From positions 1 through 47,330 of the forward strand of contig DAOQRN010000004.1 in NCBI GenBank assembly GCA_035355675.1: a stretch of 47,330 nucleotides of DNA, given 5' to 3'. The position numbers and the translations under genes were made by a program. This document shows positions 2,295 through 40,606 of the stretch, one piece after another. Origin of the DNA: an archaeon (GTDB lineage Archaea > Iainarchaeota > Iainarchaeia > Iainarchaeales > JAAZKV01). Every line of letters begins with the position of its first letter. Position 1 is the first letter of the stretch. The notes below the pieces were generated by a model that worked only from the letters and a program-made list of their open reading frames with translations, ran no database searches and had not been told where the DNA came from.

Positions 2295-2311
2295 ATGGGG
2301 GATGAGGGAAT
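2295..2311 (-). repeat. Exact 17-nt copy of the 3' end of tRNA-Pro
   Basis: atgggggatgagggaat occurs at 2295-2311 and again at 2375-2391. The second copy is the 3' acceptor strand plus the 3' T-stem strand of the tRNA-Pro gene. The 63 bp between the copies contain two perfect hairpins: cgccaa/ttggcg and gctatctct/agagatagc. Confidence 0.8.
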
Positions 2312-2375
2312 CCCACGCCAATTCCATTTGGCGAAAGGGGTTGCTATCTCTAAAGAGATAGCACGATTTTTTTAA

Positions 2376-2446
2376 TGGGGGATGAGGGAATTGAACCCCC
2401 GCCTGACGCTCCCAAAGCGCCGATCATACCACTAGACTAATCCCCC
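2376..2446 (-). tRNA. tRNA-Pro (anticodon UGG)
   Basis: Hand-folded cloverleaf of the reverse complement. Acceptor GGGGGAT/ATCCCCC, anticodon stem GGCGC/GCGTC, loop UUUGGGA (anticodon UGG), T-arm GGGGG-TTCAATT-CCCTC, discriminator A. No encoded CCA and no intron. Confidence 0.9.
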
Positions 2447-4000: not shown

Positions 4001-4074
4001 TTAATTAAATATTTTACTTAATTAAATATTTTACTTAATTAAATATTTTACTTAATTAAATATTTTACTTAATT
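4001..4074. repeat. 17-bp tandem repeat, 4 full copies plus a partial
   Basis: Unit ttaattaaatattttac at 4001, 4018, 4035 and 4052, all identical, then ttaatt. Lies between convergent genes. Confidence 0.9.
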
Positions 4075-5966: not shown

Positions 5967-8204
5967 ATGGTTTCTAGAAAAAATAATTCTATAAAATTCA
6001 ATTTTTTTAAAAATTCTTCTGCTCAAACAACAATTGAAACTTTAATAATTTTCTCAGTTTCTTTATTAATATTAACAATTTTGTTGGGAATGATTTTTAA
6101 TCAATTAGAATTGCAAAGAAATTTTGAACAACAAAAAATGGGTGAAGCATCTCTAAAAATACTTGCTTCTGAAATTAATGATGCATATTTTTTAGGTCCT
6201 GGAACTACAAAAACAATTATAATCAATATTCCTGAATTAACAAATTTTAGAAAATCTTTTATTTATCAAAATAATTTATTGTTAAATGTTGCAGGAACTG
6301 ATTTGCTTCAAACAACAAGTCCAATAGTTAAGGGTAATTGGCCAAGAAATTCAGGAGAATATTCTTTTAAAATCACAGTATTTCCAGATTTTGTTTCATT
6401 AAATGCTGAAGTTTTGGATTTTTCTCCCGAAAAGATTCAAGAAAAAGTCCTTCAATCATCACAAAAACAAGTAAATTTAGTTATAACAAATAATTCTAAT
6501 GAAGTAAAAAACTATTCATTCAACTTGACGACTCCAAACACAACAAAAGTTAATATAACTAATGGGTATGGTTCTAATTCTTTTTCTATTCTTCCTCTCC
6601 AATCAATCATAATTCCATTAACTTTATCTTGTGCTCCTGATTCTTCAGGAACTTATGTTAGTAGTTTAAACTTTGTGTCAGATGTAAGTTTTTCATATCC
6701 AATAATTTTAACTTGTGAATCAGGCCAAGAAAAATTATCAATTTTTCCTGGCACTAAAGAAATATCAAACCCAATAAATATAGAGAATACTGAAGCATTT
6801 TTAGTTTGTAATAATTCTTCTAATGATTTTTATATAAATTTAGGACTTATTGGGGATATAAATTCAGTTGCTTTAGTTGAAGACAATATTTTTATTGAAA
6901 AAAATTCTTGCTCTCAAATTGATTTAAATTTATTTTCTAAAAATGTTGGTTTGTATACTGGTCAATTAAAAATTTCTTCTTCGGGGGTTAGTTCATTTTC
7001 TAATGTTAATATAGATTTTTTTCTACCCCCTTTAAAATATTATTTTAAAACAGTTGAAGATAACAATTTGAATAATTGGTTTTCTTTTGGAAATAATGTG
7101 ACTCAAAGAAGTAGTGATGGTGCTTGGGTGGCTACGGGAGAACTTGATTGGAACAAAGAAAAAGATTTTATTATGAATGGGGGGGATTGGGATCAAAATT
7201 TAATTGCTTATTATAAATTTAATTCAAAAAATCAAGTGAGTGAAAATTGGATGATTTTAGATTCTGTTAGGGGGAATGATGGGAATTTAATAAATGGTGC
7301 AGATCTTAACCAAAATGGGTTGTGGGATTCTAATGCTATTAAATTTGATGGAGTAAATCAATATGTTGAGGTTTTAGATAATATTGATTTGAAATTAAGT
7401 GATAAATTATCCGTATTTGTTTGGATTAATTCTAAGGATATTGATCAATTAACTCAAGGAATTATTGGAAAATATCAAGATGGTAAACGGGAATGGGATC
7501 TTAGAGTTTCTCAAGAAGGAATAAGCGAGCCTCAAGGAAAAATTTCTGTACAATTTGGAACTGAAACTGGATCATATTCAGGCAGGCAATATTCTACAGA
7601 ATCTCACATAATTGAAAATGAATGGGTTTTTGTTGGTTTTACTTTTTCTGAAGGAGTTGTAAAGATTTATTTTAATGGGATTGAAGTCGCCTCAAGTTTG
7701 TTTGGTGGGAGTGTAATACCGATAACTATAAGTAATTTTGATGCGCCTTTAACAATTGGTCAAGATCAAGGATATTATTTTAATGGTTTAATTGATGAAG
7801 TTACTATTTGGGACAAAAATTTGTCTGATGTAGAAATTCTACAATTATATAATTCACATTTATCAGCAAAATTTATAGATAAAAATATTTTAGATGCTGG
7901 TATGGTAGTTGATTGGAATTCAATAAAAATCAATTCAGGTTTTGATTATGGCTTTGGAGAACTTGAAGGTGTGTCAAGTGTTGATCTTAACATATACTCT
8001 TGTAATGATATATTTTGTAGTCAAAAGACATCAAGTCAGTTTATTAGGGATTTGAATAGTGGTTTGTTTGTTCCAGTTTCTATAAATAATTCAAGATTTA
8101 TTGGATTTGATGTCAATTTTAAATTGTTTGAAAAGTACTCTGCGTATGGTGATTATGTTTATGCAGGATCATTTTTAAAAGACATAAATATTGAATATCA
8201 ATAA
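5967..8204 (+). CDS. Large pilin-like surface protein with LamG/concanavalin-A-like lectin domain
   Basis: The N-terminus FFKNSSA/QTTIETLIIFSVSLLILTILL is class III signal-like. A LamG-like block lies at about nt 7270-7855: IKFDGVNQYVEV, LSVFVWINS, WVFVGFTFSEGVVKIYFNG, PLTIGQD, FNGLIDEVTIWDKNLSDVEILQLYN. Confidence 0.7.
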   Translation: MVSRKNNSIKFNFFKNSSAQTTIETLIIFSVSLLILTILLGMIFNQLELQRNFEQQKMGEASLKILASEINDAYFLGPGTTKTIIINIPELTNFRKSFIYQNNLLLNVAGTDLLQTTSPIVKGNWPRNSGEYSFKITVFPDFVSLNAEVLDFSPEKIQEKVLQSSQKQVNLVITNNSNEVKNYSFNLTTPNTTKVNITNGYGSNSFSILPLQSIIIPLTLSCAPDSSGTYVSSLNFVSDVSFSYPIILTCESGQEKLSIFPGTKEISNPINIENTEAFLVCNNSSNDFYINLGLIGDINSVALVEDNIFIEKNSCSQIDLNLFSKNVGLYTGQLKISSSGVSSFSNVNIDFFLPPLKYYFKTVEDNNLNNWFSFGNNVTQRSSDGAWVATGELDWNKEKDFIMNGGDWDQNLIAYYKFNSKNQVSENWMILDSVRGNDGNLINGADLNQNGLWDSNAIKFDGVNQYVEVLDNIDLKLSDKLSVFVWINSKDIDQLTQGIIGKYQDGKREWDLRVSQEGISEPQGKISVQFGTETGSYSGRQYSTESHIIENEWVFVGFTFSEGVVKIYFNGIEVASSLFGGSVIPITISNFDAPLTIGQDQGYYFNGLIDEVTIWDKNLSDVEILQLYNSHLSAKFIDKNILDAGMVVDWNSIKINSGFDYGFGELEGVSSVDLNIYSCNDIFCSQKTSSQFIRDLNSGLFVPVSINNSRFIGFDVNFKLFEKYSAYGDYVYAGSFLKDINIEYQ

Positions 8205-8278: not shown

Positions 8279-8689
8279 ATGTTTAAAAAAATTAATAAAA
8301 AAAATTCTGGCCAAGTTTCAATGGAATTTATAGTTAGTGTAATAATGATTTTGATTATTTTTTTGTTTGGATTAATTATTTTCCAAGACAGGTCTGACTA
8401 TAATTCACTAAAATTCATAAATTGGGAATCTGAATTAATTGCAAATAGGATTGCTAGAAATATTAATAATGTTTATTTGAGTGATGAAAATATTTTTATT
8501 TTGGATTATATTTATTGGGATAATAAAAATTACAAAGTTTTAGTTTTTGATTCGACAGTATCAGTTTTTCATGATTTTGGTTATGCAGATGTTCCCATTT
8601 TTGCTAATGTTGATTTGAGAGTAGAAGATTTTAATGGTCCAGTAATTTTTGAGAAAAAAGATAATTTAGTAATTGTGAGGTATCCTTAA
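8279..8689 (+). CDS. Pilin-like protein with class III signal peptide
   Basis: The ATG at 8279 (in frame with track ORF 8252) gives MFKKINKKNSG/QVSMEFIVSVIMILIIFLF. Confidence 0.6.
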   Translation: MFKKINKKNSGQVSMEFIVSVIMILIIFLFGLIIFQDRSDYNSLKFINWESELIANRIARNINNVYLSDENIFILDYIYWDNKNYKVLVFDSTVSVFHDFGYADVPIFANVDLRVEDFNGPVIFEKKDNLVIVRYP

Positions 8690-9210
8690 TGAAAAAAACA
8701 TTTAAAAAAATTAATTTGCGTGGTCAATTTTTTTCTCCAGATATGATTATTGCAATTTTTATTTTTGTTGTTGCTATTAGTTTCTTTTTTATTTCTTCTG
8801 AAAATATTAATCAACAAATATCTGTTCTTGAAGAGAGAAAAAGAATTGATGAAGTAGCACACTCAACAATGAATTTTTTATTATACTCTCCGGGGATACC
8901 AAGTAATTGGGAATCAAAAGAATTTAGTGATGTAAATTTTTTTGGACTTGTAACTGAAAGAAATAAAATTTCTCAAGAAAAAATTAATTCGTTTGTATCT
9001 TTTTTTAATAATAATTATGATGATTCTAAAAAAAAATTGGGGCTTAGGGGCTTTGATTTAAAACTAAGTGTAATAGATTCTCAAAACAATGTTATTTTTT
9101 CAGCAGGTCAAGAAAAATCGAATCCTTACAAAGTATTGTATTATGATAAAATTGCTTATTATTTAGATGAAATTGTTATTGTTAGGGGAGAGTTTTATTA
9201 TGATAATTAA
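8689..9210 (+). CDS. Pilin-like protein (class III signal-like N-terminus)
   Basis: MKKTFKKINLRG/QFFSPDMIIAIFIFVVAISFFFI. The start overlaps the upstream stop (TAATG), suggesting translational coupling. Confidence 0.55.
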   Translation: MKKTFKKINLRGQFFSPDMIIAIFIFVVAISFFFISSENINQQISVLEERKRIDEVAHSTMNFLLYSPGIPSNWESKEFSDVNFFGLVTERNKISQEKINSFVSFFNNNYDDSKKKLGLRGFDLKLSVIDSQNNVIFSAGQEKSNPYKVLYYDKIAYYLDEIVIVRGEFYYDN

Positions 9211-24474: not shown

Positions 24475-24549
24475 GGACGATTAGCTCAGCCTGGTTAGAG
24501 CATTAGTCTTATACACTAGGGGTCAGCGGTTCAAATCCGCTATCGTCCA
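24475..24549 (+). tRNA. tRNA-Ile (anticodon UAU)
   Basis: Clean hand-folded cloverleaf. Acceptor GGACGAT/ATCGTCC, D-arm GCTC-AGCCTGGTTA-GAGC, anticodon stem TTAGT/ACTAG, loop CUUAUAC (anticodon UAU), T-arm AGCGG-TTCAAAT-CCGCT, discriminator A. Confidence 0.85.
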
Positions 24550-24595
24550 CTTAATTTTAAAAAATTAAAAATTAAATTTGGGTTTTGTGAGAAAT

Positions 24596-27460
24596 ATGTC
24601 AAGGTTTGAAGTAGAAAAAAAGATTTCCGATTTCTGGGAAGAAAACAAATTCTTTGAAAAATCTGTTTCAATGAGACCAATTGATAAGCAATATGTTTTC
24701 TATGATGGTCCACCTTTTGCAACAGGTCTTCCTCATTATGGACACATTTTAGGTTTAACAAGTAAAGATGTTTTTCCAAGATACTGGACAATGAAGGGTT
24801 ATAGAGTTGAAAGAAGATGGGGTTGGGATTGTCACGGACTTCCAATTGAAAGTATTGCTGAAAAAGAACTTGGAATAAAAAACAAAAAAGAAATCGAAGC
24901 AATGGGTGTTGATAAATTTAACGAATTTTGTAGATCAAAAGTTTTCTTTTTTGAAAAAGAATGGAAAAAAACTGTTAGAACAATGGGAAAATGGATCGAG
25001 TTTGATAATTCTTACAAAACAATGGATAACACATACATGGAATCAGTTTGGAACATTTTCAAAACACTTTATGATAAAAAATATATTTATGAAGGAAAAA
25101 AAATCTTGATGTATTGTCCTCATTGTCAAACTCCTCTTGCAAATTCAGAAATTGCGATGGATAATAGTTATAGAGATGTTACAGAAAAAACAGCAACAGT
25201 TGCTTTTAAAGTAAAAGGAAAAGAAGATGAATTTATTTTAGCATGGACTACTACTCCTTGGACACTAATTGGAAATGTAGCGCTAGCAGTAAATCCTGAA
25301 CTTGATTATGTAAAGATTGATGTGTTTGGAAAAAAATTTATTTTAGCAAAAGAATTAATTACTAATTTTTTCCTGCATTATGAATTAATTGAAGAATTCA
25401 AAGGTAGTAAAATTTTAGGTCTTGAATATGATCCACTTTATGAAATGAATTTGAATGGAAAAAAAGGACACTATATAATTGATGGTGGAAAAGATGTAAC
25501 TGCAGTAGACGGAACAGGAATAGTTCACATGGCAATTTATGGTGAATTTGATTATCAAATGATTAGAAAATATGATTTACCAATAATACAACACATAGGA
25601 AATGATGGGACATTAATTGAAGGGCCAAAAAATTGGTTAGGTAAATGGTTCAAAAAAGTTGATGCTGATGTTTTAGGTGATTTACAAGATAGGGGAATTT
25701 TAATTGAGGAAAAAAGTTACAATCACTCATACCCTTTTTGTTATAGGTGTGAAACTCCATTAATTTACAATGCGGTTGATTCTTGGTTTGTGGATATAAC
25801 AAAAGTAAAACCTCAATTAATGAAATCGGCTGAGAGCATTAATTGGTATCCTGAAAATATTAAAGAAGGAAGATTCAAGTATATTTTAGAAACAGCTCCT
25901 GATTGGAGTATTTCAAGAAATAGATTTTGGGCAACAGCAATTCCAGTATGGAAATGTGAAAAATGTAATAATGTAAAAGTAATTGGGAGTGTTGATGAAT
26001 TAAAACAAAATGCTGTAGAAAAGTTAGAAGGTGAAGTAGATTTACACAAACACATAGTTGACAAAATTCAGTTAAAATGTTCTTGTGGGGCAACAATGAA
26101 TAGAATCCCTGAAGTTCTTGATTGTTGGTTTGAATCAGGAAGTATGCCTTATGCAGCAAAACATTATCCTTTTGAAAACCAAGAATGGTTTGAAACAAAT
26201 TTTCCTTGTGATTTTATTTCAGAATACATTGCACAAGTTAGAGCATGGTTTTACTATATGCATGTGCTTTCAACTCTTTTGTTTGATAAAGCTCCTTTCA
26301 AAAGCGTTGTAGTATCAGGGACTGTTCTTGCAAGTGACGGAACAAAAATGTCAAAATCCAAAGGAAACTTTCCAGATCCAAACAAAATATTTGAAACTTA
26401 CGGGGCAGATTCTTTACGACTTTATTTAATGTCTTCAGCATTAATGAGAGCAGAAGATTTGAATTTCATTGAAGATAATGTAAAAGAAATGCATAGAAAA
26501 GTAGTAATGATTCTTGCAAATGTAAAAAATTTTTATGAATTATTTTCAGCAACAGGGATAGATCCTGCTAACGATTCTTCAACAAATATTTTAGACAAAT
26601 GGATGATTAGTAAAACAAATAATTTAGTAAAAAATGCTACAAAATACTATGATGATTATAATACAATAAATTTGTGTGCAGAAATTGTAGGTTTTATTGA
26701 TGATTTATCAACATGGTTTGTTAGAAGAAGTAGGGATAGGTTCAAAAGTGATGATGAAAATGAAAAAAATACTGCAATAACTACGCTTGCATATACTTTA
26801 ACTAATTTATCAAAAGTAATGGCACCAATTGCACCATTCATTTCAGAAGAAGTGTATCAATCACTAAAAAAATCTTGTGTGGATTTAAAAGATTCAGTAC
26901 ACTTAGATGATTGGCCAAAATATAATGGAAAATTAATTGATGCTGATTTAGAAAAAACTATGGTTGTTGTTAGAGAAATTTGCAGTAAAGCACTTGATGA
27001 GAGAAAAAAATCAAATATTCCAATAAGACAAGCATTAGGCGAATTATCTTTTAGTGGAGCAAAAATAAAATTATCAGAAGAATTACTTGAAATAATAAAA
27101 GATGAATTGAATGTAAAAAAAATAATTCAAGGGAGCTTAAGTGAAAAAGAAAACTCTGAAGTTATTGTAACTCTTGATACAAAAATAACTCCTGAATTAT
27201 TAAGAGAAGGAATTTCAAGAGAATTAATCAGAAAAATAAATGATTATAGAAAAGAATTAAATTTAACAATAAAAAATAAAATAAGTTTAACAATAGAAAC
27301 AAGTGATGATACAATAAAACAAAGTGTTAGTGAATTTTCTAGTGAAATAAAAAAGTCAGTTCAAGCAATAGAAATTGTTCAAAATGCTTGTAGTAGTGAT
27401 AGAGTAAAAGAAGTTGAATTAAATAAAGCAAAAATAAAATTACAAATTGATTTAGTTTAA
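24596..27460 (+). CDS. ileS: Isoleucyl-tRNA synthetase
   Basis: HIGH motif PHYGHILG, KMSKS motif KMSKSKGN, CP1 editing-domain blocks (TTTPWTL), and Cys clusters. First ATG at 24596 (track ORF starts at TTG 24578). Confidence 0.95.
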   Translation: MSRFEVEKKISDFWEENKFFEKSVSMRPIDKQYVFYDGPPFATGLPHYGHILGLTSKDVFPRYWTMKGYRVERRWGWDCHGLPIESIAEKELGIKNKKEIEAMGVDKFNEFCRSKVFFFEKEWKKTVRTMGKWIEFDNSYKTMDNTYMESVWNIFKTLYDKKYIYEGKKILMYCPHCQTPLANSEIAMDNSYRDVTEKTATVAFKVKGKEDEFILAWTTTPWTLIGNVALAVNPELDYVKIDVFGKKFILAKELITNFFLHYELIEEFKGSKILGLEYDPLYEMNLNGKKGHYIIDGGKDVTAVDGTGIVHMAIYGEFDYQMIRKYDLPIIQHIGNDGTLIEGPKNWLGKWFKKVDADVLGDLQDRGILIEEKSYNHSYPFCYRCETPLIYNAVDSWFVDITKVKPQLMKSAESINWYPENIKEGRFKYILETAPDWSISRNRFWATAIPVWKCEKCNNVKVIGSVDELKQNAVEKLEGEVDLHKHIVDKIQLKCSCGATMNRIPEVLDCWFESGSMPYAAKHYPFENQEWFETNFPCDFISEYIAQVRAWFYYMHVLSTLLFDKAPFKSVVVSGTVLASDGTKMSKSKGNFPDPNKIFETYGADSLRLYLMSSALMRAEDLNFIEDNVKEMHRKVVMILANVKNFYELFSATGIDPANDSSTNILDKWMISKTNNLVKNATKYYDDYNTINLCAEIVGFIDDLSTWFVRRSRDRFKSDDENEKNTAITTLAYTLTNLSKVMAPIAPFISEEVYQSLKKSCVDLKDSVHLDDWPKYNGKLIDADLEKTMVVVREICSKALDERKKSNIPIRQALGELSFSGAKIKLSEELLEIIKDELNVKKIIQGSLSEKENSEVIVTLDTKITPELLREGISRELIRKINDYRKELNLTIKNKISLTIETSDDTIKQSVSEFSSEIKKSVQAIEIVQNACSSDRVKEVELNKAKIKLQIDLV

Positions 27461-33396: not shown

Positions 33397-33457
33397 GTAG
33401 TATGATTTGCCTGCGATCTAATTTTTCTAAAAAGTGACCTCTCCTCCTTTGCCAGAA

Positions 33458-33553
33458 CCCTTTTTGTTGCTACAAAAAGCGTTCACGGAAAAATGCCTTC
33501 AGCATGAGCCCTTTTTGTTGTTACAAAAAGCGTTCACGGAAAAATGCCTTCGG
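33458..33553 (+). repeat. 51-bp-period tandem duplication (2 copies) of a hairpin-containing module
   Basis: ccctttttgttgYtacaaaaagcgttcacggaaaaatgccttcRg at 33458 and 33509, with 2 mismatches over 45 nt. Each copy contains the hairpin ctttttgt/acaaaaag. Confidence 0.85.
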
Positions 33554-33650
33554 TAGGATGGTGCGACCAAGTACCCTTGGGGTACGGGTCCAGCAAAGTT
33601 TTACTTTGCTTGGAAGCAGTATCTTCGTTCTTCGAACTCGATACAGCGAA
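33509..33650 (+). ncRNA. Candidate structured RNA, copy 1 (unclassified; paralog of 39301-39500)
   Basis: A GC-rich island in an AT-rich intergenic region. Ordered hairpins: 33511-33530, gtaccc/gggtac 33571-33585, gcaaagt/actttgc 33593-33609, gtatc/gatac 33619-33644. Shared linkers with copy 2: gccttcgg, gggtcc, ttgga, agcagt, acagcgaa. Strand inferred only. Confidence 0.45.
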
Positions 33651-33801
33651 TAAATTTACACAAAAAAGAAAGGATTATTTTGTAAATAGTGATATAGTGC
33701 ATACCTTTGCTTACACAAAAGTGTTGGTTATTTTTTAATGATTTTTTCTTGAAAATATTTTCTAAACAAACTTTTTTATATTCGGTTTGAGTAAATCCAT
33801 T

Positions 33802-34515: not shown

Positions 34516-35814
34516 ATGCAACAAGATTTTTCACAAGAACCAGCAGTTCTGGGTAGAGATTTAAAGGATCTTGAAAAGTATGGTTCTCAAGGAACTGCGT
34601 ATTTAGGTAAAGTTGTAATGTCAAGCGGGGAAAGACCAGTATTGGGTAGAAAAGTAATGGTTGATGTTTCTCGTCCTCACTTAATGCTGATTTGTGGAAA
34701 AAGAGGGGGAGGAAAATCCTATACTCTTGCTGTATTAATGGAAGAAATGGCAAGGCTAGATTCTTCAATTAAATCAAGAATTTCTACAATCACAATTGAT
34801 ACTGTTGGGATTTTTTGGGGACTAAAATTGCCTGCAGCAAATGCTGATAATGTTGAACTAAGTGCTTGGGACTTAAAAGCTGAAAAAACAAATGTACAAG
34901 TTCTTGTTCCAAGAGGACAACTTGCGTTTTATCAAGAAAAAGGGTTACCAATTGATGGAGCTTTTACTTTAAAGTGTTCAGAACTTGAAGAAACAGAATG
35001 GATGGCTCTTTTTCACTTAAAGTGGTCAGATCCTGAAGGAATACTTATTTCAAGGATCGTTGCAAAAGTTCGTGAAAAAGTTGGAACATATTATGGGATT
35101 GATGACCTTATTTCTGCAACAAAAGTTGATGAAGAATCAAAACTAGAAGTTCGTCAAGCGGTAATATCACGTTTACAAATGGCTAAGAGTTGGGGGTTAA
35201 TTGAAAAAGAAGGAACAAAAATAGAGCAATTAGCACTTCCAGGAGTAATTACAGTAATTGATGTTTCTTCATATCGTCAAACCGTTGGAGCTGAAGGAAT
35301 AAAAGATATTGTTGTTGCGTTAATTGGTAAAAAAATATTTGAACAGAGAATGCTTTATAGAAAAGAAGAAGAAATGAAATTAATTAATGAAAATAAAAGA
35401 TCAAGTAAAATGCCTCTTGTGTGGTTAATGATTGATGAAGCACACATGTTTATGCCAAAAGATGAAGAAAATATTGCTTTGCCAGTTTTACTTGAATGGG
35501 TGAGAGTAGGTCGTCAACCTGGATTAGGATTAATTCTTGCAACTCAAAGACCTGAAAAAATTCACCCTGATGCAGTATCTCAATGTGATATTTTTATTTC
35601 ACACAGAATGACTTCACAACCAGATATAGCAGCAGTTGGAGCACTAAGACCAACTTACATGAACACTGATCTTGATAAATTATATTCAGAAATGCCAAGA
35701 CAAAAAGGATTCGCTCTTGTAATTGATGATAATACTGAAAAAATTTGGATGATAAAAACTAGACCTCGTTTCTCTTGGGACTCAAGTGTAACAGCAAGCG
35801 CTTTCTTAATTTAA
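34516..35814 (+). CDS. HerA/FtsK-superfamily P-loop ATPase (DUF87-like)
   Basis: Walker A CGKRGGGKSYT (nt 34696-34719), Walker B WLMIDEAHMF, and LILATQRPEKIHPDAVSQCDIFISHRMTS, typical of the HerA/VirB4/FtsK clade. Confidence 0.7.
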   Translation: MQQDFSQEPAVLGRDLKDLEKYGSQGTAYLGKVVMSSGERPVLGRKVMVDVSRPHLMLICGKRGGGKSYTLAVLMEEMARLDSSIKSRISTITIDTVGIFWGLKLPAANADNVELSAWDLKAEKTNVQVLVPRGQLAFYQEKGLPIDGAFTLKCSELEETEWMALFHLKWSDPEGILISRIVAKVREKVGTYYGIDDLISATKVDEESKLEVRQAVISRLQMAKSWGLIEKEGTKIEQLALPGVITVIDVSSYRQTVGAEGIKDIVVALIGKKIFEQRMLYRKEEEMKLINENKRSSKMPLVWLMIDEAHMFMPKDEENIALPVLLEWVRVGRQPGLGLILATQRPEKIHPDAVSQCDIFISHRMTSQPDIAAVGALRPTYMNTDLDKLYSEMPRQKGFALVIDDNTEKIWMIKTRPRFSWDSSVTASAFLI

Positions 35815-35913
35815 AAAAACTAGTTAAAAAAATAATTAAGAAAAAGTAGTAAAAAATATCTTCGAAAAATAAAAAATATTTTTTTTGAGTATTTTAAAAA
35901 ATAAAAAAATAAT

Positions 35914-35950
35914 GTGCACTAAGAAAGGGTGCTAGTAGTGCACTTTTTTT
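35914..35950. terminator. Hairpin flanked by A-run and T-run between convergent genes
   Basis: 8-bp inverted repeat gtgcacta (35914-35921) / tagtgcac (35936-35943). aaaaaaa lies upstream and ttttttt downstream. Confidence 0.5.
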
Positions 35951-35954
35951 AGAA

Positions 35955-36587
35955 TTATTTTTTTAGTTTTACAAGTTCTTTGATGTTTGCATTTTCTGCT
36001 TCAACAACAATGTCTTGACTTGATTTGAAATTAATTTTAGCACTTCCAGCATCAAGAACTAAATTTCGTAGTTGTCTTTTTGCAAGTAAGTAAGTTAGTA
36101 CTTCTTCTATTCTTTCGTGTTCAACAATTACTCCATTAGATTCTTTTGTTAATTTTAGTTTTAGTGAAAGTTCTGTTAAATCAAGTGTTCCAATAAATTC
36201 TGGTCTTAATGAAACGTGAGTACACTCCATTTCTTCAAGTGCCCTGTCTACAAAAGAAATTGCTTTTACTGAATCATTAAAAGAAAAATTCTTTTTAAGT
36301 CTAATTGATTCAACAAAATCCATTAATTCTTCTTTTTCTATTGTTTGTTTAGCAAGTTTTGATCTTAGTGATTCAAAATCACTCTCAATACTTGAAAATA
36401 ATTCAAGTATTTCTTTATTTTTCATTTCATTAGAAATCATTTTTTTTGTTTCAGGGTTAGCAATAGCTCTTTCCCTTAAAACCTTCATTTCTGATAAAAC
36501 CTTGTCAAAATCAGTATTAACATTTTTGACTTTGTCAAGATCACTCTTAACTCTAATAAGTTCAGCTTCTAATCTAGCTAAAGACAT
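35955..36587 (-). CDS. Coiled-coil protein with C-terminal mixed alpha/beta domain, unknown function
   Basis: 210-aa ORF with an ATG start. The N-terminal 110 aa have heptad-like charged helices. No motif recognised. Confidence 0.4.
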   Translation of the reverse strand: MSLARLEAELIRVKSDLDKVKNVNTDFDKVLSEMKVLRERAIANPETKKMISNEMKNKEILELFSSIESDFESLRSKLAKQTIEKEELMDFVESIRLKKNFSFNDSVKAISFVDRALEEMECTHVSLRPEFIGTLDLTELSLKLKLTKESNGVIVEHERIEEVLTYLLAKRQLRNLVLDAGSAKINFKSSQDIVVEAENANIKELVKLKK

Positions 36588-36726
36588 GAACCAACACCCC
36601 GAATAACTATGGTTTTTCTAATATTTAATGCTATCCCGAATAGGATTTTGTAATTATAATTAGTTAATTTAACTGTTATTTTCTTTGCCCAATATCTTTT
36701 TAAAACAACTTTTGGAAAATTATGTT

Positions 36727-39114
36727 ATGGTTTCTAAAAGTAAAGCAACAAAAATTCAGTCATTTTTTAGAACAAGAGAATTTCTTGCTTTATTTGTTTT
36801 ATTTATTCTTTTTTGTATAGCATTACTTGTTGTTCCTTTTTGGGGGACAGCAAAAATAAATGAATTTTCTTCAGCAAATTTTTATTTTAATGAATATGAC
36901 AAATTAATTGATGAAAACAATCAATTTTGTTTTTCTTTTTCAATTGATACACAAAGTACAAAAGTTCATGAGGATAGAATAAGTGTTTTTGTTAATCAAA
37001 ATGTAATATTTTCAGAACCAATTGTAATTGTTGCAGAAAACTCTGATCAAGAATTATTTAATTATTATGGCGGAATAAAAAAGAATTATTGTTTTGATTC
37101 ATTTTACCTAAATGATGGAAACAATGTTGTTTCTGTTTCTCTTGGTTCTCAAAAATTATTTTACCACATACAAAAAGTTGATTTATTAGTTGAACCAATT
37201 ACAAAATTAGAAATAATTGATATTAATTCAGAAGGGGTATTGTTTAATTTAGATTTGAAAAACTATGATTCATTTAAACCGTTAATGATTTCAATTAATG
37301 ATAAAGAAATTCAAAAGATATATCCTGGCCAAGGGAATAAAGATTATTTTGAAAAAATTGATTTTGTTGAAGGACAAAATAAAATTAATTTATCTTTTAA
37401 TGGAGTGAGTATTTCTAAAGAATACTTTTACACTCCACAAATAAAAATGAATCCAATTATTGGTTTTCTATTTTTTATTTTAATAATGGGGATTTTTTCT
37501 TTATTTGTTTTTTCTAAAAAAAGTTTTATTGAAAAATCCGCTCTTTCATTGATGAGCGCTTTTGCATTAATAGTATCAACAGGATTTATTTTGAACTTTT
37601 TCAAAATGCTGAATTTGTTTTCATTTTTGTTTTTAAATTTATTAATACTTTTATTATTATTTTTTGTTTTTAAAAATAATTATTCTTCAAAAACTTTTTC
37701 TTTAGAAGATAAACAAAAAATTATTAGCCCGATTTTTGTAGTGATTATTTTGGGCGCGATTTTACTTCCTCTTTTTATTAATTTTTTTACTGTTAGTAAT
37801 TTTTCTTATTGGAATACTTACTATGAAAGGCATGCTGAATCTTTGGCAGAAAATTTTGAACTACCAATAATTGATGAATTAAGTTATTTTGGTAGGCCTT
37901 TAGGATTTATTCCAGGGTATTTTTATTTACAATCAGGATTTTCTTGGATTTTTGGAGTTAGTGGTCAAGAATTATTTTCTCTTGGTTTAATAATTGCTAA
38001 CATATTTTTCATTTTCGCTGTTTTAATGCTTGGAGAGAGTCTTGGGTTTTCAAGAAATAAATCCGCAATACTTTATGTTTTACTTTGGATGGAAAATTTT
38101 ATTAGAACTGGGTTAATAATTAGTCCAAGACACGCGTTTTCTTTTGGATTATTTATTGTAGCACTTTCTTTAGTTTTGAGTAATCGTTCAAAATTAAAAG
38201 AAAAAATACTTTCATCAATTTCTCTAGCAATTTGCGGGTTTATTCAATTCCCACTCTTTGTTGCTTTTATTCCACTGTACTTAATTGTTGCAAAAAAAAT
38301 TGAATTAAAAAAAGTAATAATTATTTGGTTAGTTGCTGGAGCAATATTTTTGTTATTTTTTGTCCCAAACTTTTTGAATTTTGGTTTCCCTACGCAAGCA
38401 GAATCCTCAAATTGGGGTTACTTAATTAATTATGATGCAGTAAATATTTTACTTGACTTTGGGCCAATGTTTGTTTTCTTTTTCTTATTCACAATATTTG
38501 ATTTAAAAGAAAGAAAATTTTCTCTTTTGGGATATGAAAAGAAATTATTTATTGGAGTAATTTTGGGTTTGTTGTTTCAAATATTTATTAGTTATAGGTG
38601 GAATATTTTTAATGCAATAAATTTTGCAGTATTTTTAGTTATTTTAATTCCTGAAAAAGCTTTTGAAAGTAAATATTTTATTAGAGTGATTGCAATAATA
38701 ATGCTCTTTGTTGGATTAATTAGTGGATCAACAATTGGGTATTTATCAATAACAAACTATTTAACCGAACCTTATGATTTTTTATCTAACAATTCTTCTT
38801 CCACTGAAAGAATTTTATCAGATCCATTATTTAGTCATGATATAACTTATTTCACGAACAGATCAGTTATGGCAGATTTAGCTGTTGAATACGCTCCTGA
38901 AGAAATGCTTCAAGAAAATTTTAAATTTTTAGAGGAAAAAGATTACTCAATAATTGATAAGTATAATATAAATTGGGTTTTTTCTCAAAAAAACTTTATT
39001 AACCGAAAAGCATTTGGGAACAAACCCCTTGATTATGAACTTGAATTTGAAAAACTTGATAAAGTATTTTCAAATGCTTTAATCAATATTCATTGGAACT
39101 CAAAAAATCAGTGA
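36727..39114 (+). CDS. Large polytopic membrane protein with N-terminal extracytoplasmic beta-rich domain (GT-C-like topology is only a guess)
   Basis: ATG at 36727 (track ORF starts at TTG 36685). One TM helix, a ~200-aa beta-rich domain, at least 12 TM helices, and a ~130-aa C-terminal soluble domain. No WWDYG or DxD motif identified. Confidence 0.45.
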   Translation: MVSKSKATKIQSFFRTREFLALFVLFILFCIALLVVPFWGTAKINEFSSANFYFNEYDKLIDENNQFCFSFSIDTQSTKVHEDRISVFVNQNVIFSEPIVIVAENSDQELFNYYGGIKKNYCFDSFYLNDGNNVVSVSLGSQKLFYHIQKVDLLVEPITKLEIIDINSEGVLFNLDLKNYDSFKPLMISINDKEIQKIYPGQGNKDYFEKIDFVEGQNKINLSFNGVSISKEYFYTPQIKMNPIIGFLFFILIMGIFSLFVFSKKSFIEKSALSLMSAFALIVSTGFILNFFKMLNLFSFLFLNLLILLLLFFVFKNNYSSKTFSLEDKQKIISPIFVVIILGAILLPLFINFFTVSNFSYWNTYYERHAESLAENFELPIIDELSYFGRPLGFIPGYFYLQSGFSWIFGVSGQELFSLGLIIANIFFIFAVLMLGESLGFSRNKSAILYVLLWMENFIRTGLIISPRHAFSFGLFIVALSLVLSNRSKLKEKILSSISLAICGFIQFPLFVAFIPLYLIVAKKIELKKVIIIWLVAGAIFLLFFVPNFLNFGFPTQAESSNWGYLINYDAVNILLDFGPMFVFFFLFTIFDLKERKFSLLGYEKKLFIGVILGLLFQIFISYRWNIFNAINFAVFLVILIPEKAFESKYFIRVIAIIMLFVGLISGSTIGYLSITNYLTEPYDFLSNNSSSTERILSDPLFSHDITYFTNRSVMADLAVEYAPEEMLQENFKFLEEKDYSIIDKYNINWVFSQKNFINRKAFGNKPLDYELEFEKLDKVFSNALINIHWNSKNQ

Positions 39115-39213
39115 TTAATTCAAAAAATAAAGCCAAAGCAATGTTATTTAAAGATTCACAAAGAAATTTAATTTAATGAAAACCACTCTAAAAGGGTTAG
39201 GGTTTTTATTTTT

Positions 39214-39297
39214 GCACGGGTTGGGGAGCGGTCAAACCCGCAGGGTTTAGGACCCTGTCGCTTAGTGCGTTCAACGGTTCAAATCCGTTCCCGTGCA
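39214..39297 (+). tRNA. tRNA-Leu (anticodon UAG), class II with long variable arm
   Basis: Acceptor GCACGGG/CCCGTGC, anticodon stem CAGGG/CCCTG, loop UUUAGGA (anticodon UAG), variable arm CGC-TTAGT-GCG, T-arm AACGG-TTCAAAT-CCGTT, discriminator A. Confidence 0.9.
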
Positions 39298-39300
39298 CTT

Positions 39301-39500
39301 CTTTTGTCTTACGCCAAAAGACCTGCACTAGAAAGAGGCCTTCGGCGTGCATGTCGAGTTTCGGCTCGACCGAGTAAAAGCAATTAGCTTTTACGGGTCC
39401 CACAAAGTTTCACTTTGTTTGGACGGTGCGAAGCAGTGTCTTCACTGCGTTCGACACAGCGAAAAGGTGCGCGAAAAGAAGCGAGTCATCTAAAGATGAC
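39301..39500 (+). ncRNA. Candidate structured RNA, copy 2 (unclassified; paralog of 33509-33650)
   Basis: Starts 4 nt after tRNA-Leu and is about 50% GC. Consecutive perfect hairpins: cttttg/caaaag 39301-39320, gtcgag/ctcgac, gtaaaagc/gcttttac 39374-39394, acaaagt/actttgt 39402-39418, gtgtc/gacac 39436-39457, gtcatc/gatgac 39485-39500. A T7 run follows at 39513-39519. The track ORFs here (39206-39403 minus, and the 5' end of 39415) are judged non-coding. Confidence 0.45.
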
Positions 39501-39532
39501 ACTTAATTATTCTTTTTTTCAAAAACGAATTG

Positions 39533-39540
39533 TTTATATA
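39533..39540 (+). promoter_or_regulatory. TATA box for the channel gene
   Basis: TTTATATA lies 22 nt upstream of the ATG at 39562 (leaderless geometry). This supports the shorter start. Confidence 0.45.
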
Positions 39541-40371: not shown

Positions 40372-40438
40372 AAAACAACTCTTTTTAATTGTATTTTTTT
40401 TAAAAATTTTTTAAAAAACAATTCACTCTTTACTTAGA

Positions 40439-40571
40439 TTTATTAACCTTTTTTTCTTTCGGCCGCTCACCCAGCCGGCGTGTGGGCATCATCTTCGCCT
40501 AAAGGCTCGATGAAGCTGTTTTTTAAGATTTTCTTTTTCTTTGTAATTACCTTTATTAACCTTTTTTTCTT
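40439..40571 (+). repeat. Perfect 20-bp direct repeat flanking a 93-bp segment that holds a GC-rich ~60-nt core
   Basis: tttattaacctttttttctt at 40439-40458 and 40552-40571. Between the copies lies cggccgctcacccagccggcgtgtgggcatcatcttcgcctaaaggctcgatgaagctg, followed by tttttt. Confidence 0.8.
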
Positions 40572-40606
40572 CCATTTTGCTAGTACTTTTTATGGAGTTG
40601 ATTTGA

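Follow-up and report, generated by a model that had tools for sequence, protein, structure and literature searches.

A modular chain of GC-rich hairpins behind tRNA-Leu(TAG) is a candidate structured RNA of an Iainarchaeum-like archaeon

What is the GC-rich segment that directly follows the tRNA-Leu(TAG) gene in an AT-rich archaeal genome? The stretch of DNA analyzed here, referred to as the window, is 47,330 nt long and has an overall GC content of 0.283. It encodes a thermosome, Alba, archaeal type IV pilus proteins, form III RuBisCO, and PPDK. The gene content and the identity of the nearest public relative, a 'Candidatus Iainarchaeum' MAG (L001), indicate that the host is a DPANN archaeon. 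DPANN archaea have tiny genomes, and their non-coding RNAs are almost uncharacterized. The same strain is represented in three further assemblies (L010–L012), in which the three loci described below (copies A, B, and C) are 100% identical to those in the window. The only non-coding GC-rich islands across the 47 kb are tRNAs, the trailer of tRNA-Pro, and copies A, B, and C.

The tRNA-Leu(TAG) gene is located on the forward strand at positions 39214–39298 (ARAGORN; Rfam tRNA score of 52.6 bits). Copy B of the element starts directly at the 3' end of the tRNA and spans positions 39298–39519. The original prediction described a chain of hairpins of about 200 nt, with about 50% GC, ending in a run of seven T, and the analysis confirms this description. 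The GC content of copy B is about 46–52% (0.48–0.52 in 150-nt windows over positions 39175–39474), compared with 0.283 for the whole window, and the T7 run is at positions 39513–39519. The RNA fold of the segment 39299–39520 has an energy of −75.1 kcal/mol and a z-score of −4.3, and none of 200 shuffled sequences folds as well.

In the 5' to 3' direction, copy B is composed of hairpin Hm, a purine-rich linker, a UUC mini-hairpin, hairpin H1, the H2+H3 module, hairpin H4, a terminal hairpin, and T7, all on the forward strand. Hm (39293–39328) has the lower stem GUGCA/UGCAC, an internal loop, and the upper stem UCUUUUG/CAAAAGA. The 5' strand of the lower stem (39293–39297) is formed by the last five bases of tRNA-Leu. 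The purine-rich linker UAGAAAGAGG and the mini-hairpin GCC-UUC-GGC (39338–39346) occupy positions 39329–39353, and the CGUGCA after the mini-hairpin repeats the 3' end of tRNA-Leu. Together, these elements form module M0 (39298–39351), which is bounded by CGTGCA repeats at positions 39292–39297 and 39346–39351. Hairpin H1 (39354–39369) has the sequence UCGAG-UUUCGG-CUCGA. The H2+H3 module (39370–39422) is closed by CCGA/UUGG and contains H2 (GUAAAAGC/GCUUUUAC), the strand GGGUCCC, and H3 (ACAAAGU/ACUUUGU); the GGGUCC between H2 and H3 is invariant. Hairpin H4 (39433–39460) has the structure GC-A-GUGUC/UUC/AC-UGC-GU/UC/GACAC-A-GC and scores 50.8 bits with the covariance model R1. The terminal hairpin GUCAUC/GAUGAC and T7 together span positions 39485–39519, and the T7 run is likely an archaeal oligo-T terminator. 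Terminal hairpins followed by T-rich runs are also present in the related sequences L003 and L021.

Some pairings within the chain can be drawn in more than one way. Near GGGUCC, the pairings GACC/GGUC, UCC/GGA, and CCRA/UUGG are alternatives that three sequences do not separate. The choice fell on CCRA/UUGG, as L021 retains CC..UUGG. A long-range pairing of UUUCG from the H1 loop with CGAAA on the 3' side of H4 is possible in copy B, L001, and L003, but not in copies A and C or L021, and it was not adopted.

No run of five or more T occurs from tRNA-Leu to position 39513, and no AT-rich TATA-like box was spotted by eye within the GC-rich stretch of copy B. In L001, L003, and L021 the element likewise follows the tRNA directly, with no intervening promoter or terminator. 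This arrangement fits co-transcription with the tRNA, one of the two options, independent or co-transcribed, left by the original prediction. A TATA-like box, tttatata, is positioned after copy B at 39533, about 29 nt before the ATG of an ion-channel gene. In the window as in L001 and L003, the element precedes the channel gene, and the TATA box in between is conserved. Another TATA-like sequence, ttttttatatt, is located near position 33772, after copy A. The promoters of the downstream genes thus follow each of these two copies, as had been claimed.

H4 is the only hairpin present in every copy. Its consensus is GC-A-NNNNC / UUC / 2–6 bp stem-loop / YUC / GNNNN-A-GC, which corresponds to an eight-position stem with a conserved A·A mismatch, a UUC/YUC internal loop, and a short variable stem-loop. 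In an alignment of five sequences (A5), H4 is 100% paired, and changes on both sides are found in five of nine pairs. The model R1 has exactly three matches in the window, with scores of 46–52 bits, and the next best score is 12 bits. It has one match each in L001, L002, and L003, and one in L021 (36 bits, E = 6e-8), whereas 33 kb of further related sequence, including 20 kb from the L001 genome, contains none. The three copies in the 47 kb of the window lie within 7 kb of each other, and about 38 kb of the L001 genome contains one. A scan of IMG/VR with the H4 pattern gave three chance matches inside coding-like DNA, and a scan with the 3' end of tRNA-Leu gave zero matches. Judged from sequence, H4 is most likely the functional core of the element and would probably be recognized by a protein.

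GTDB species genomes and JGI metagenomes were scanned with a strict H2H3-H4 pattern, which identified a single other organism, represented by L001 among the genomes and by L002 among the metagenomes. Synteny searches via the flanking channel protein and via the upstream 809-aa protein identified L003 (channel protein 78% identical) and L021 (upstream protein 44% identical), respectively. In the channel-protein search only L003 was informative, and L004–L008 were not syntenic. In the search with the 809-aa protein, the element is present in L021 and absent from L017/L018 and L019/L020; L022/L024 were not syntenic. Only four independent genomes contain the element, and in all three relatives (L001/L002, L003, and the distant L021) it is positioned directly after tRNA-Leu(TAG).

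The composition of the chain differs among the relatives. L001 has H1, H2+H3, and H4 and lacks the 54-nt M0 with Hm, the linker, and the mini-hairpin. L003 has H1 and H4 and lacks both M0 and the 54-nt H2+H3 unit. L021 has M0, an H1-like hairpin, CC-H2-UUGG, H4, and the terminal hairpin, and lacks GGGUCC and H3; the order Hm, UUC hairpin, H1-like hairpin, H2, H4, terminal hairpin is kept after its tRNA-Leu. The stem of H1 is UCCAG/CUGGA in L003 and UCCUG/CAUGA in L001, and the mini-hairpin is AUGC-UUC-GCAU in L021 and GCC-UUC-GGU in copy A. The 54-nt modules are present in some and absent from others among relatives whose channel proteins are 74–81% identical. Because whole modules are missing in relatives, the element is not one fixed RNA of about 200 nt, as was originally supposed. 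M0 is common to the window and the distant L021, and L001 and L003 have therefore most likely lost it; the deletion would most likely have joined the two CGTGCA repeats. The whole element is absent from L017/L018 (upstream protein 71% identical), where a foreign-looking island directly follows the tRNA, and from L019/L020 (upstream protein 49% identical), where a convergent gene does. The presence of the same tRNA-Leu and upstream gene without the element indicates that it is dispensable. In the sequences compared, the hairpins other than H4 are dispensable modules that appear to have been gained, lost, and tandemly duplicated.

The island in L017 (8124–15049) and L018 (6865–11487) contains genes for SLFN/AlbA_2-HATPase-TrmB, WYL, Bro-N, and acetyltransferase proteins downstream of tRNA-Leu(TAG). 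It is probably an integrated element or a defense island. If it is integrated, the 3' end of tRNA-Leu would be an integration site in this clade.

The paralog reported near 33.5 kb, copy A, is real, but its extent had been given as 33509–33650 and is 33455–33653. The composite pattern ACGGGTCC..TTGGA..AGCAGT matches the window only at positions 33584 and 39393, with 0 matches expected. Copy A opens with two tandem M0 units of 51 nt each (90% identity), which have the Hm lower stem GAAC/GUUC or GAGC/GUUC and occupy positions 33455–33556 of the forward strand. The core of copy A (33567–33653, forward strand) contains CCAA, H2 (GUACCC/GGGUAC), GGGUCCA, H3 (GCAAAGU/ACUUUGC), UUGG, and H4 (33616–33647), which scores 51.6 bits with R1; H1 is degenerate. 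All of the linkers said to be shared with copy B (gccttcgg, gggtcc, ttgga, agcagt, and acagcgaa) are present in both copies. The stem exchanges listed between B and A are also correct: gtaaaagc/gcttttac versus gtaccc/gggtac, acaaagt/actttgt versus gcaaagt/actttgc, and gtgtc/gacac versus gtatc/gatac.

Copy A is located after the gene of a winged helix-turn-helix (wHTH) regulator and before a secreted-protein gene. At the same site in L002 the flanks are syntenic and 82–87% identical, but the GC-rich core is absent. The L002 site holds an Hm-like hairpin followed by 4.4 tandem AT-rich units of 51 nt (..CUUGCACUAAAAAAGAAAGGCUGG..U7GUG..; 7966–8185, minus strand). The copy 5.8 kb upstream of copy B is thus not a conserved feature, since only AT-rich 51-nt tandem repeats take its place in L002. 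Material has thus passed between the A and B loci, which expand and contract. A YGCAC-A-rich-GG motif, similar to that of the 51-nt unit of L002, recurs in M0, on the 3' side of the L001 element, and on the 3' side of copy A. The distant L022 has four direct repeats of a similar motif (CCGTGCAATAAGAAAA-like) in the trailer of its tRNA-Leu (8626–8720). Interpretations of the motif as an origin-recognition box, and of complementarity to a tRNA anticodon or variable arm, were unsupported and were dropped.

A reduced third copy, copy C, was found at positions 40460–40524 of the forward strand by a scan for GC-rich islands and a descriptor search. It is formed by the GC-rich lead CCGGCGUG..GGCAU, which resembles the 3' end of M0, by H4 (40486–40516, GCAUCAUC/GAUGAAGC; 45.8 bits with R1), and by T6 (40519–40524). 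Copy C is positioned between the stop codon of the channel gene, 90 nt away, and the PPDK gene. The promoter region of PPDK is duplicated around it, with the direct repeat tttattaacctttttttctt at 40438–40459 on the forward strand and a second copy at 40550–40573. This duplication, with a repeat of about 20 nt, puts a TATA-like box about 25–30 nt upstream of copy C. The PPDK promoter region is single-copy in L001. Several T7–T8 runs are located between the channel stop codon and copy C. Together with the TATA-like box, these runs suggest that copy C, if expressed, would be a separate unit of about 55 nt; its place behind a duplicated promoter and before T6 likewise makes a small independent transcript conceivable. 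Copy C is absent from the same site in L001 and L009, where a 794-aa gene and no GC-rich element is found. This secreted-protein gene (about 794 aa) lies between the channel and PPDK genes in L001 (2150–4815) and L009 (627–992). It is missing from the window, where the junction 40372–40606 is occupied by copy C and the duplicated PPDK promoter segment.

The trailer of tRNA-Pro(TGG) is also structured and GC-rich, in the window (2296–2446, minus strand), L025 (9712–9870), and L027 (4387–4670). It forms the hairpins GCUAUCUC/GAGAUAGC and CGCCAA/UUGGCG (fold z = −4.2). Neither hairpin is related in sequence to H4, and downstream of them a 16-nt stretch from the tRNA 3' end is repeated exactly. 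Both hairpins are retained in the ortholog of the L001 genome, where one compensatory change has occurred and the copy of the tRNA end and its flank is decayed. In L027, a low-coverage contig, the trailer unit of about 80 nt is repeated three times in tandem.

The conservation of pairing was evaluated over all helices of the element. MAFFT misaligned copy A and L003, and because it failed on the module indels, a manual N-padded alignment (A6) was prepared and checked against the real sequences. A6 contains eight copies and 45 pairs in eight helices. Standard pairs occupy 97.4% of its 194 cells, 21 of the 45 pairs have changes on both sides, and 0 of 500 shuffles reach the observed values; fitting A6 to the structure by hand inflates these statistics, and its sequences come from a small, related set. 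With the partners shifted by one to three columns, only 35–43% of the cells are paired. In Hm, both sides changed in all five lower-stem pairs and in three of seven upper-stem pairs (copies B, L021, A, A1, and the L002 A-locus), and the same is true of four pairs in H2 and two in H3. The claim that pairing rather than sequence is conserved is thus borne out, within a hand-made alignment.

Substitutions and T runs carry information on the strand. There are four G·U pairs versus one A·C pair, and the T runs are on the forward strand, which favors an RNA transcribed from the same strand as the tRNA. The reverse complement, however, has a fold that is equally good or better (z = −5.7). In most copies, every one of the six reading frames is broken, and L001, L003, and L021 have stop codons in nearly every frame. 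Motifs shared by A and B fall in different frames in hand translations of the spurious ORFs. A small protein-coding ORF is essentially excluded, because no open frame is conserved among the homologs. The GC-rich stems in a genome with 28% GC, the compensatory changes, and the order kept in a distant relative indicate selection on structure. As far as the sequences of a handful of genomes can tell, the element is a real, structure-conserved RNA candidate that is modular and variable between close relatives.

The element does not match known RNA families. Rfam 15 was searched with the whole window at gathering thresholds and with copies B, A, and C and the L021 ortholog at E ≤ 10. Among families that include SRP, RNase P, 5S, riboswitches, ribozymes, C/D, H/ACA, and group II domains, only tRNA passes, and the best non-tRNA scores are 9–21 bits compared with thresholds of 36–120. 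Because the tRNA is the sole match at both settings, the earlier assignment as unclassified stands. Inspection by eye gave no fit to K-turns, bulge-helix-bulge motifs, group II domain V, the hammerhead core, or RNase P CR-I/CR-V. An archaeal C/D box sRNA was rejected because no UGAUGA or CUGA is present in 39298–39519 and the Rfam C/D models score at noise level. An archaeal H/ACA sRNA was rejected because the internal loop of H4 is only 3 × 2 nt, the GA/GA K-turn signature is missing, and ACA is changed to AUA-UGG in L001. GGGUCC..UUGGAAGCAG of copy A recalls GGUCC-GGAA-GGAAGCAG, the apex of helix 8 of 4.5S/SRP RNA. However, a hairpin replaces the tetraloop, eight extra bases separate GGA from AGCAG in B and L001, L021 and L003 lack GGGUCC, and no SRP model from Rfam scores on the element even at E ≤ 10. 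The resemblance was treated as chance.

DNA elements of known types were compared as well. An integron attC site does not fit, since the base of H4 (GCAG/CAGC) has no GTTRRRY core, no integrase was found among the scanned window ORFs, and copy C is 90 nt past a stop codon. An attL/attR scar at tRNA-Leu was rejected because only the 6-nt CGTGCA is repeated and M0 is present in the distant L021. A direct repeat of the tRNA 3' end of the kind expected from an integration scar was found at the tRNA-Pro trailer (16 nt) and not at tRNA-Leu. Among features of REP and MITE elements, copy C and M0 have direct repeats at their borders (about 20 nt and 6 nt, respectively), and terminal inverted repeats are absent. 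A Pfam scan covered the window ORFs of at least 100 aa, excluding three located opposite larger ORFs, and detected no transposase, integrase, or RAYT.

The element may be a tRNA-linked, lineage-restricted structured small RNA, produced as the 3' trailer of tRNA-Leu(UAG) and released by an RNase Z cut; H4 would be its functional core, and two paralogs lie nearby. We give this interpretation an even balance of confidence and doubt. Transcription would start at the tRNA-Leu promoter, continue through the trailer, where no T5+ run precedes position 39513, and stop at T7. Cleavage by RNase Z after the tRNA discriminator would release a free trailer RNA of about 130–220 nt, a chain of independently folding GC-rich hairpins. 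Co-transcription and release are suggested by the position of the element directly after the discriminator, the lack of a TATA-like box, and the lack of a T5+ run before T7; any cellular role of the RNA would likewise be a prediction.

A precedent for this route exists in Nanoarchaeum equitans, in which RNase Z creates the 5' end of sRNAs from dicistronic tRNA-sRNA precursors (PMC3491384). The pair of tRNA-Val and the C/D box sRNA8 is the documented case, and plant tRNA-snoRNA genes are cited in the same study (PMC3491384). Copy B resembles this pair in that it directly follows a tRNA on the same strand in a DPANN host, seems to have no promoter of its own, and would obtain its 5' end from an RNase Z cut. 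Unlike sRNA8, which is about 55 nt long and of the C/D type, copy B is a series of chained hairpins of 130–220 nt with no C/D or C'/D' boxes and no recognizable guide function, and its processing is predicted. In the general character of the island, the element also resembles the Hgc RNAs, which Klein, Misulovin, and Eddy reportedly described in 2002 as GC-rich islands of non-coding RNA in AT-rich archaeal genomes. Both are structured and fall outside the classical RNA families. However, the element does not match the HgcC–G models, and its host is uncultured and known from metagenome assemblies alone.

A housekeeping RNA would be hard to reconcile with the dispensability of all modules except H4, the absence of the element from L017 and L019, the absence of the copy A core and copy C from relatives, and the placement of the paralogs within 7 kb. 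Such a small, local, and fast-evolving family leaves room for another origin, in which the hairpins would be rapidly evolving palindromic repeat modules, or scars of recombination, at a hot spot associated with a tRNA. They would be similar to REP/MITE or CIME elements and would be kept as DNA or single-stranded DNA hairpins or simply tolerated. Whole modules present or absent between close relatives would be explained in this way, as would the tandem modules (2 × 51 nt in copy A and 4.4 × 51 nt at the L002 A site) and the direct repeats that flank copy C (about 20 nt) and bound M0 (CGTGCA). WYL, Bro-N, and SLFN/AlbA_2 genes lie in an island that directly follows the 3' end of tRNA-Leu in L017, and the tRNA-Pro trailer carries its exact 16-nt copy of the tRNA end. 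Bacterial REP/BIME are also imperfect GC-rich palindromes of intergenic 3' regions that are clustered, vary in copy number, and have covarying stems. The element differs from them in its very low copy number, diverged copies, G·U pairs, archaeal host, and the lack of a visible RAYT/TnpA. The three H4 copies in 47 kb, confined to 7 kb, and the one in about 38 kb of L001 would be few for a repeat family, the Pfam-scanned ORFs supply no transposase, integrase, or RAYT, and the scans of IMG/VR gave chance matches alone. The copies are not near-identical and carry compensatory changes and G·U pairs, the order of their modules is kept in the distant L021, and the Hm flanks in copy A are complementary (GAAC/GUUC) rather than direct repeats. 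An origin as repeats or scars is rather unlikely in our estimate.

Two explanations dispense with a free RNA of this kind. The hairpins could act in cis as 3'-end structures that protect against exonucleases, or provide insulation or termination between co-oriented genes. Copies A, B, and C and the tRNA-Pro trailer are all positioned in sense orientation at the 3' ends of transcription units; behind each come T runs and, after these, the promoter of the next gene. However, the T7–T8 runs before copy C should already have ended the channel mRNA, the T7 of copy B is 215 nt past the tRNA, from which the trailer is removed anyway, and the scan for GC-rich islands found no such element between most other co-oriented gene pairs of the window. 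It is also established that archaeal intrinsic termination relies on oligo-T and does not require hairpins. We regard a purely cis-acting role as improbable. Far more improbable still is a 5' leader or riboswitch of the downstream gene, which the place of the element ahead of the channel gene in the window and in L001 and L003 might suggest. The conserved TATA box about 29 nt before the ATG is between the element and the gene and implies a leaderless channel mRNA, the genes that follow A, B, and C are unrelated (secreted protein, ion channel, and PPDK), and no riboswitch family from Rfam matches. The original argument against a riboswitch in the 5'-UTR, based on the position upstream of the TATA box, agrees with this assessment.

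If the tRNA-linked small RNA is real, a strategy documented so far for the C/D box RNAs of Nanoarchaeum would extend to a new type of RNA. The novelty would be in the RNA, which matches no described family, whereas its probable production by riding a tRNA transcript has a known parallel. A broader and unlikely, more speculative version is that Iainarchaeum-like archaea make an undescribed modular class of RNA by tRNA processing. Its members would be chains of GC-rich hairpins around the protein-binding hairpin H4, and their modules would duplicate and shuffle between tRNA trailers and promoter-carrying loci such as copy C. The tRNA-Pro trailer, with its two conserved hairpins, would then be a second example. 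A real tRNA-linked RNA would also offer, with copy B and H4, a concrete, testable candidate for a non-coding RNA in DPANN archaea. If the element were merely a rapidly changing hairpin repeat at a recombination hot spot near a tRNA, it would be ordinary, yet it would call for caution in screens that use GC-rich islands to find non-coding RNAs in AT-rich genomes.

Three further features of the window were observed. A DUF87/HerA-like ATPase (432 aa) is encoded beside an uncharacterized protein of about 800 aa at positions 34516–39114. The two genes are also adjacent in the distant L019, L022, and L024, convergently in L022 and L024, and a 210-aa protein joins the pair in closer relatives, so that they form a conserved gene neighborhood. 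A tRNA-Ile with the anticodon TAT (UAU) at positions 24475–24550 is located directly 5' of a class I aminoacyl-tRNA synthetase gene (24578–27460). tRNA-Ile(UAU) is uncommon in archaea, in which AUA is usually read by a modified CAU tRNA. The intergenic region 4001–4074 contains a perfect tandem repeat with a 17-nt unit, TTAATTAAATATTTTAC, present in 4.4 copies.
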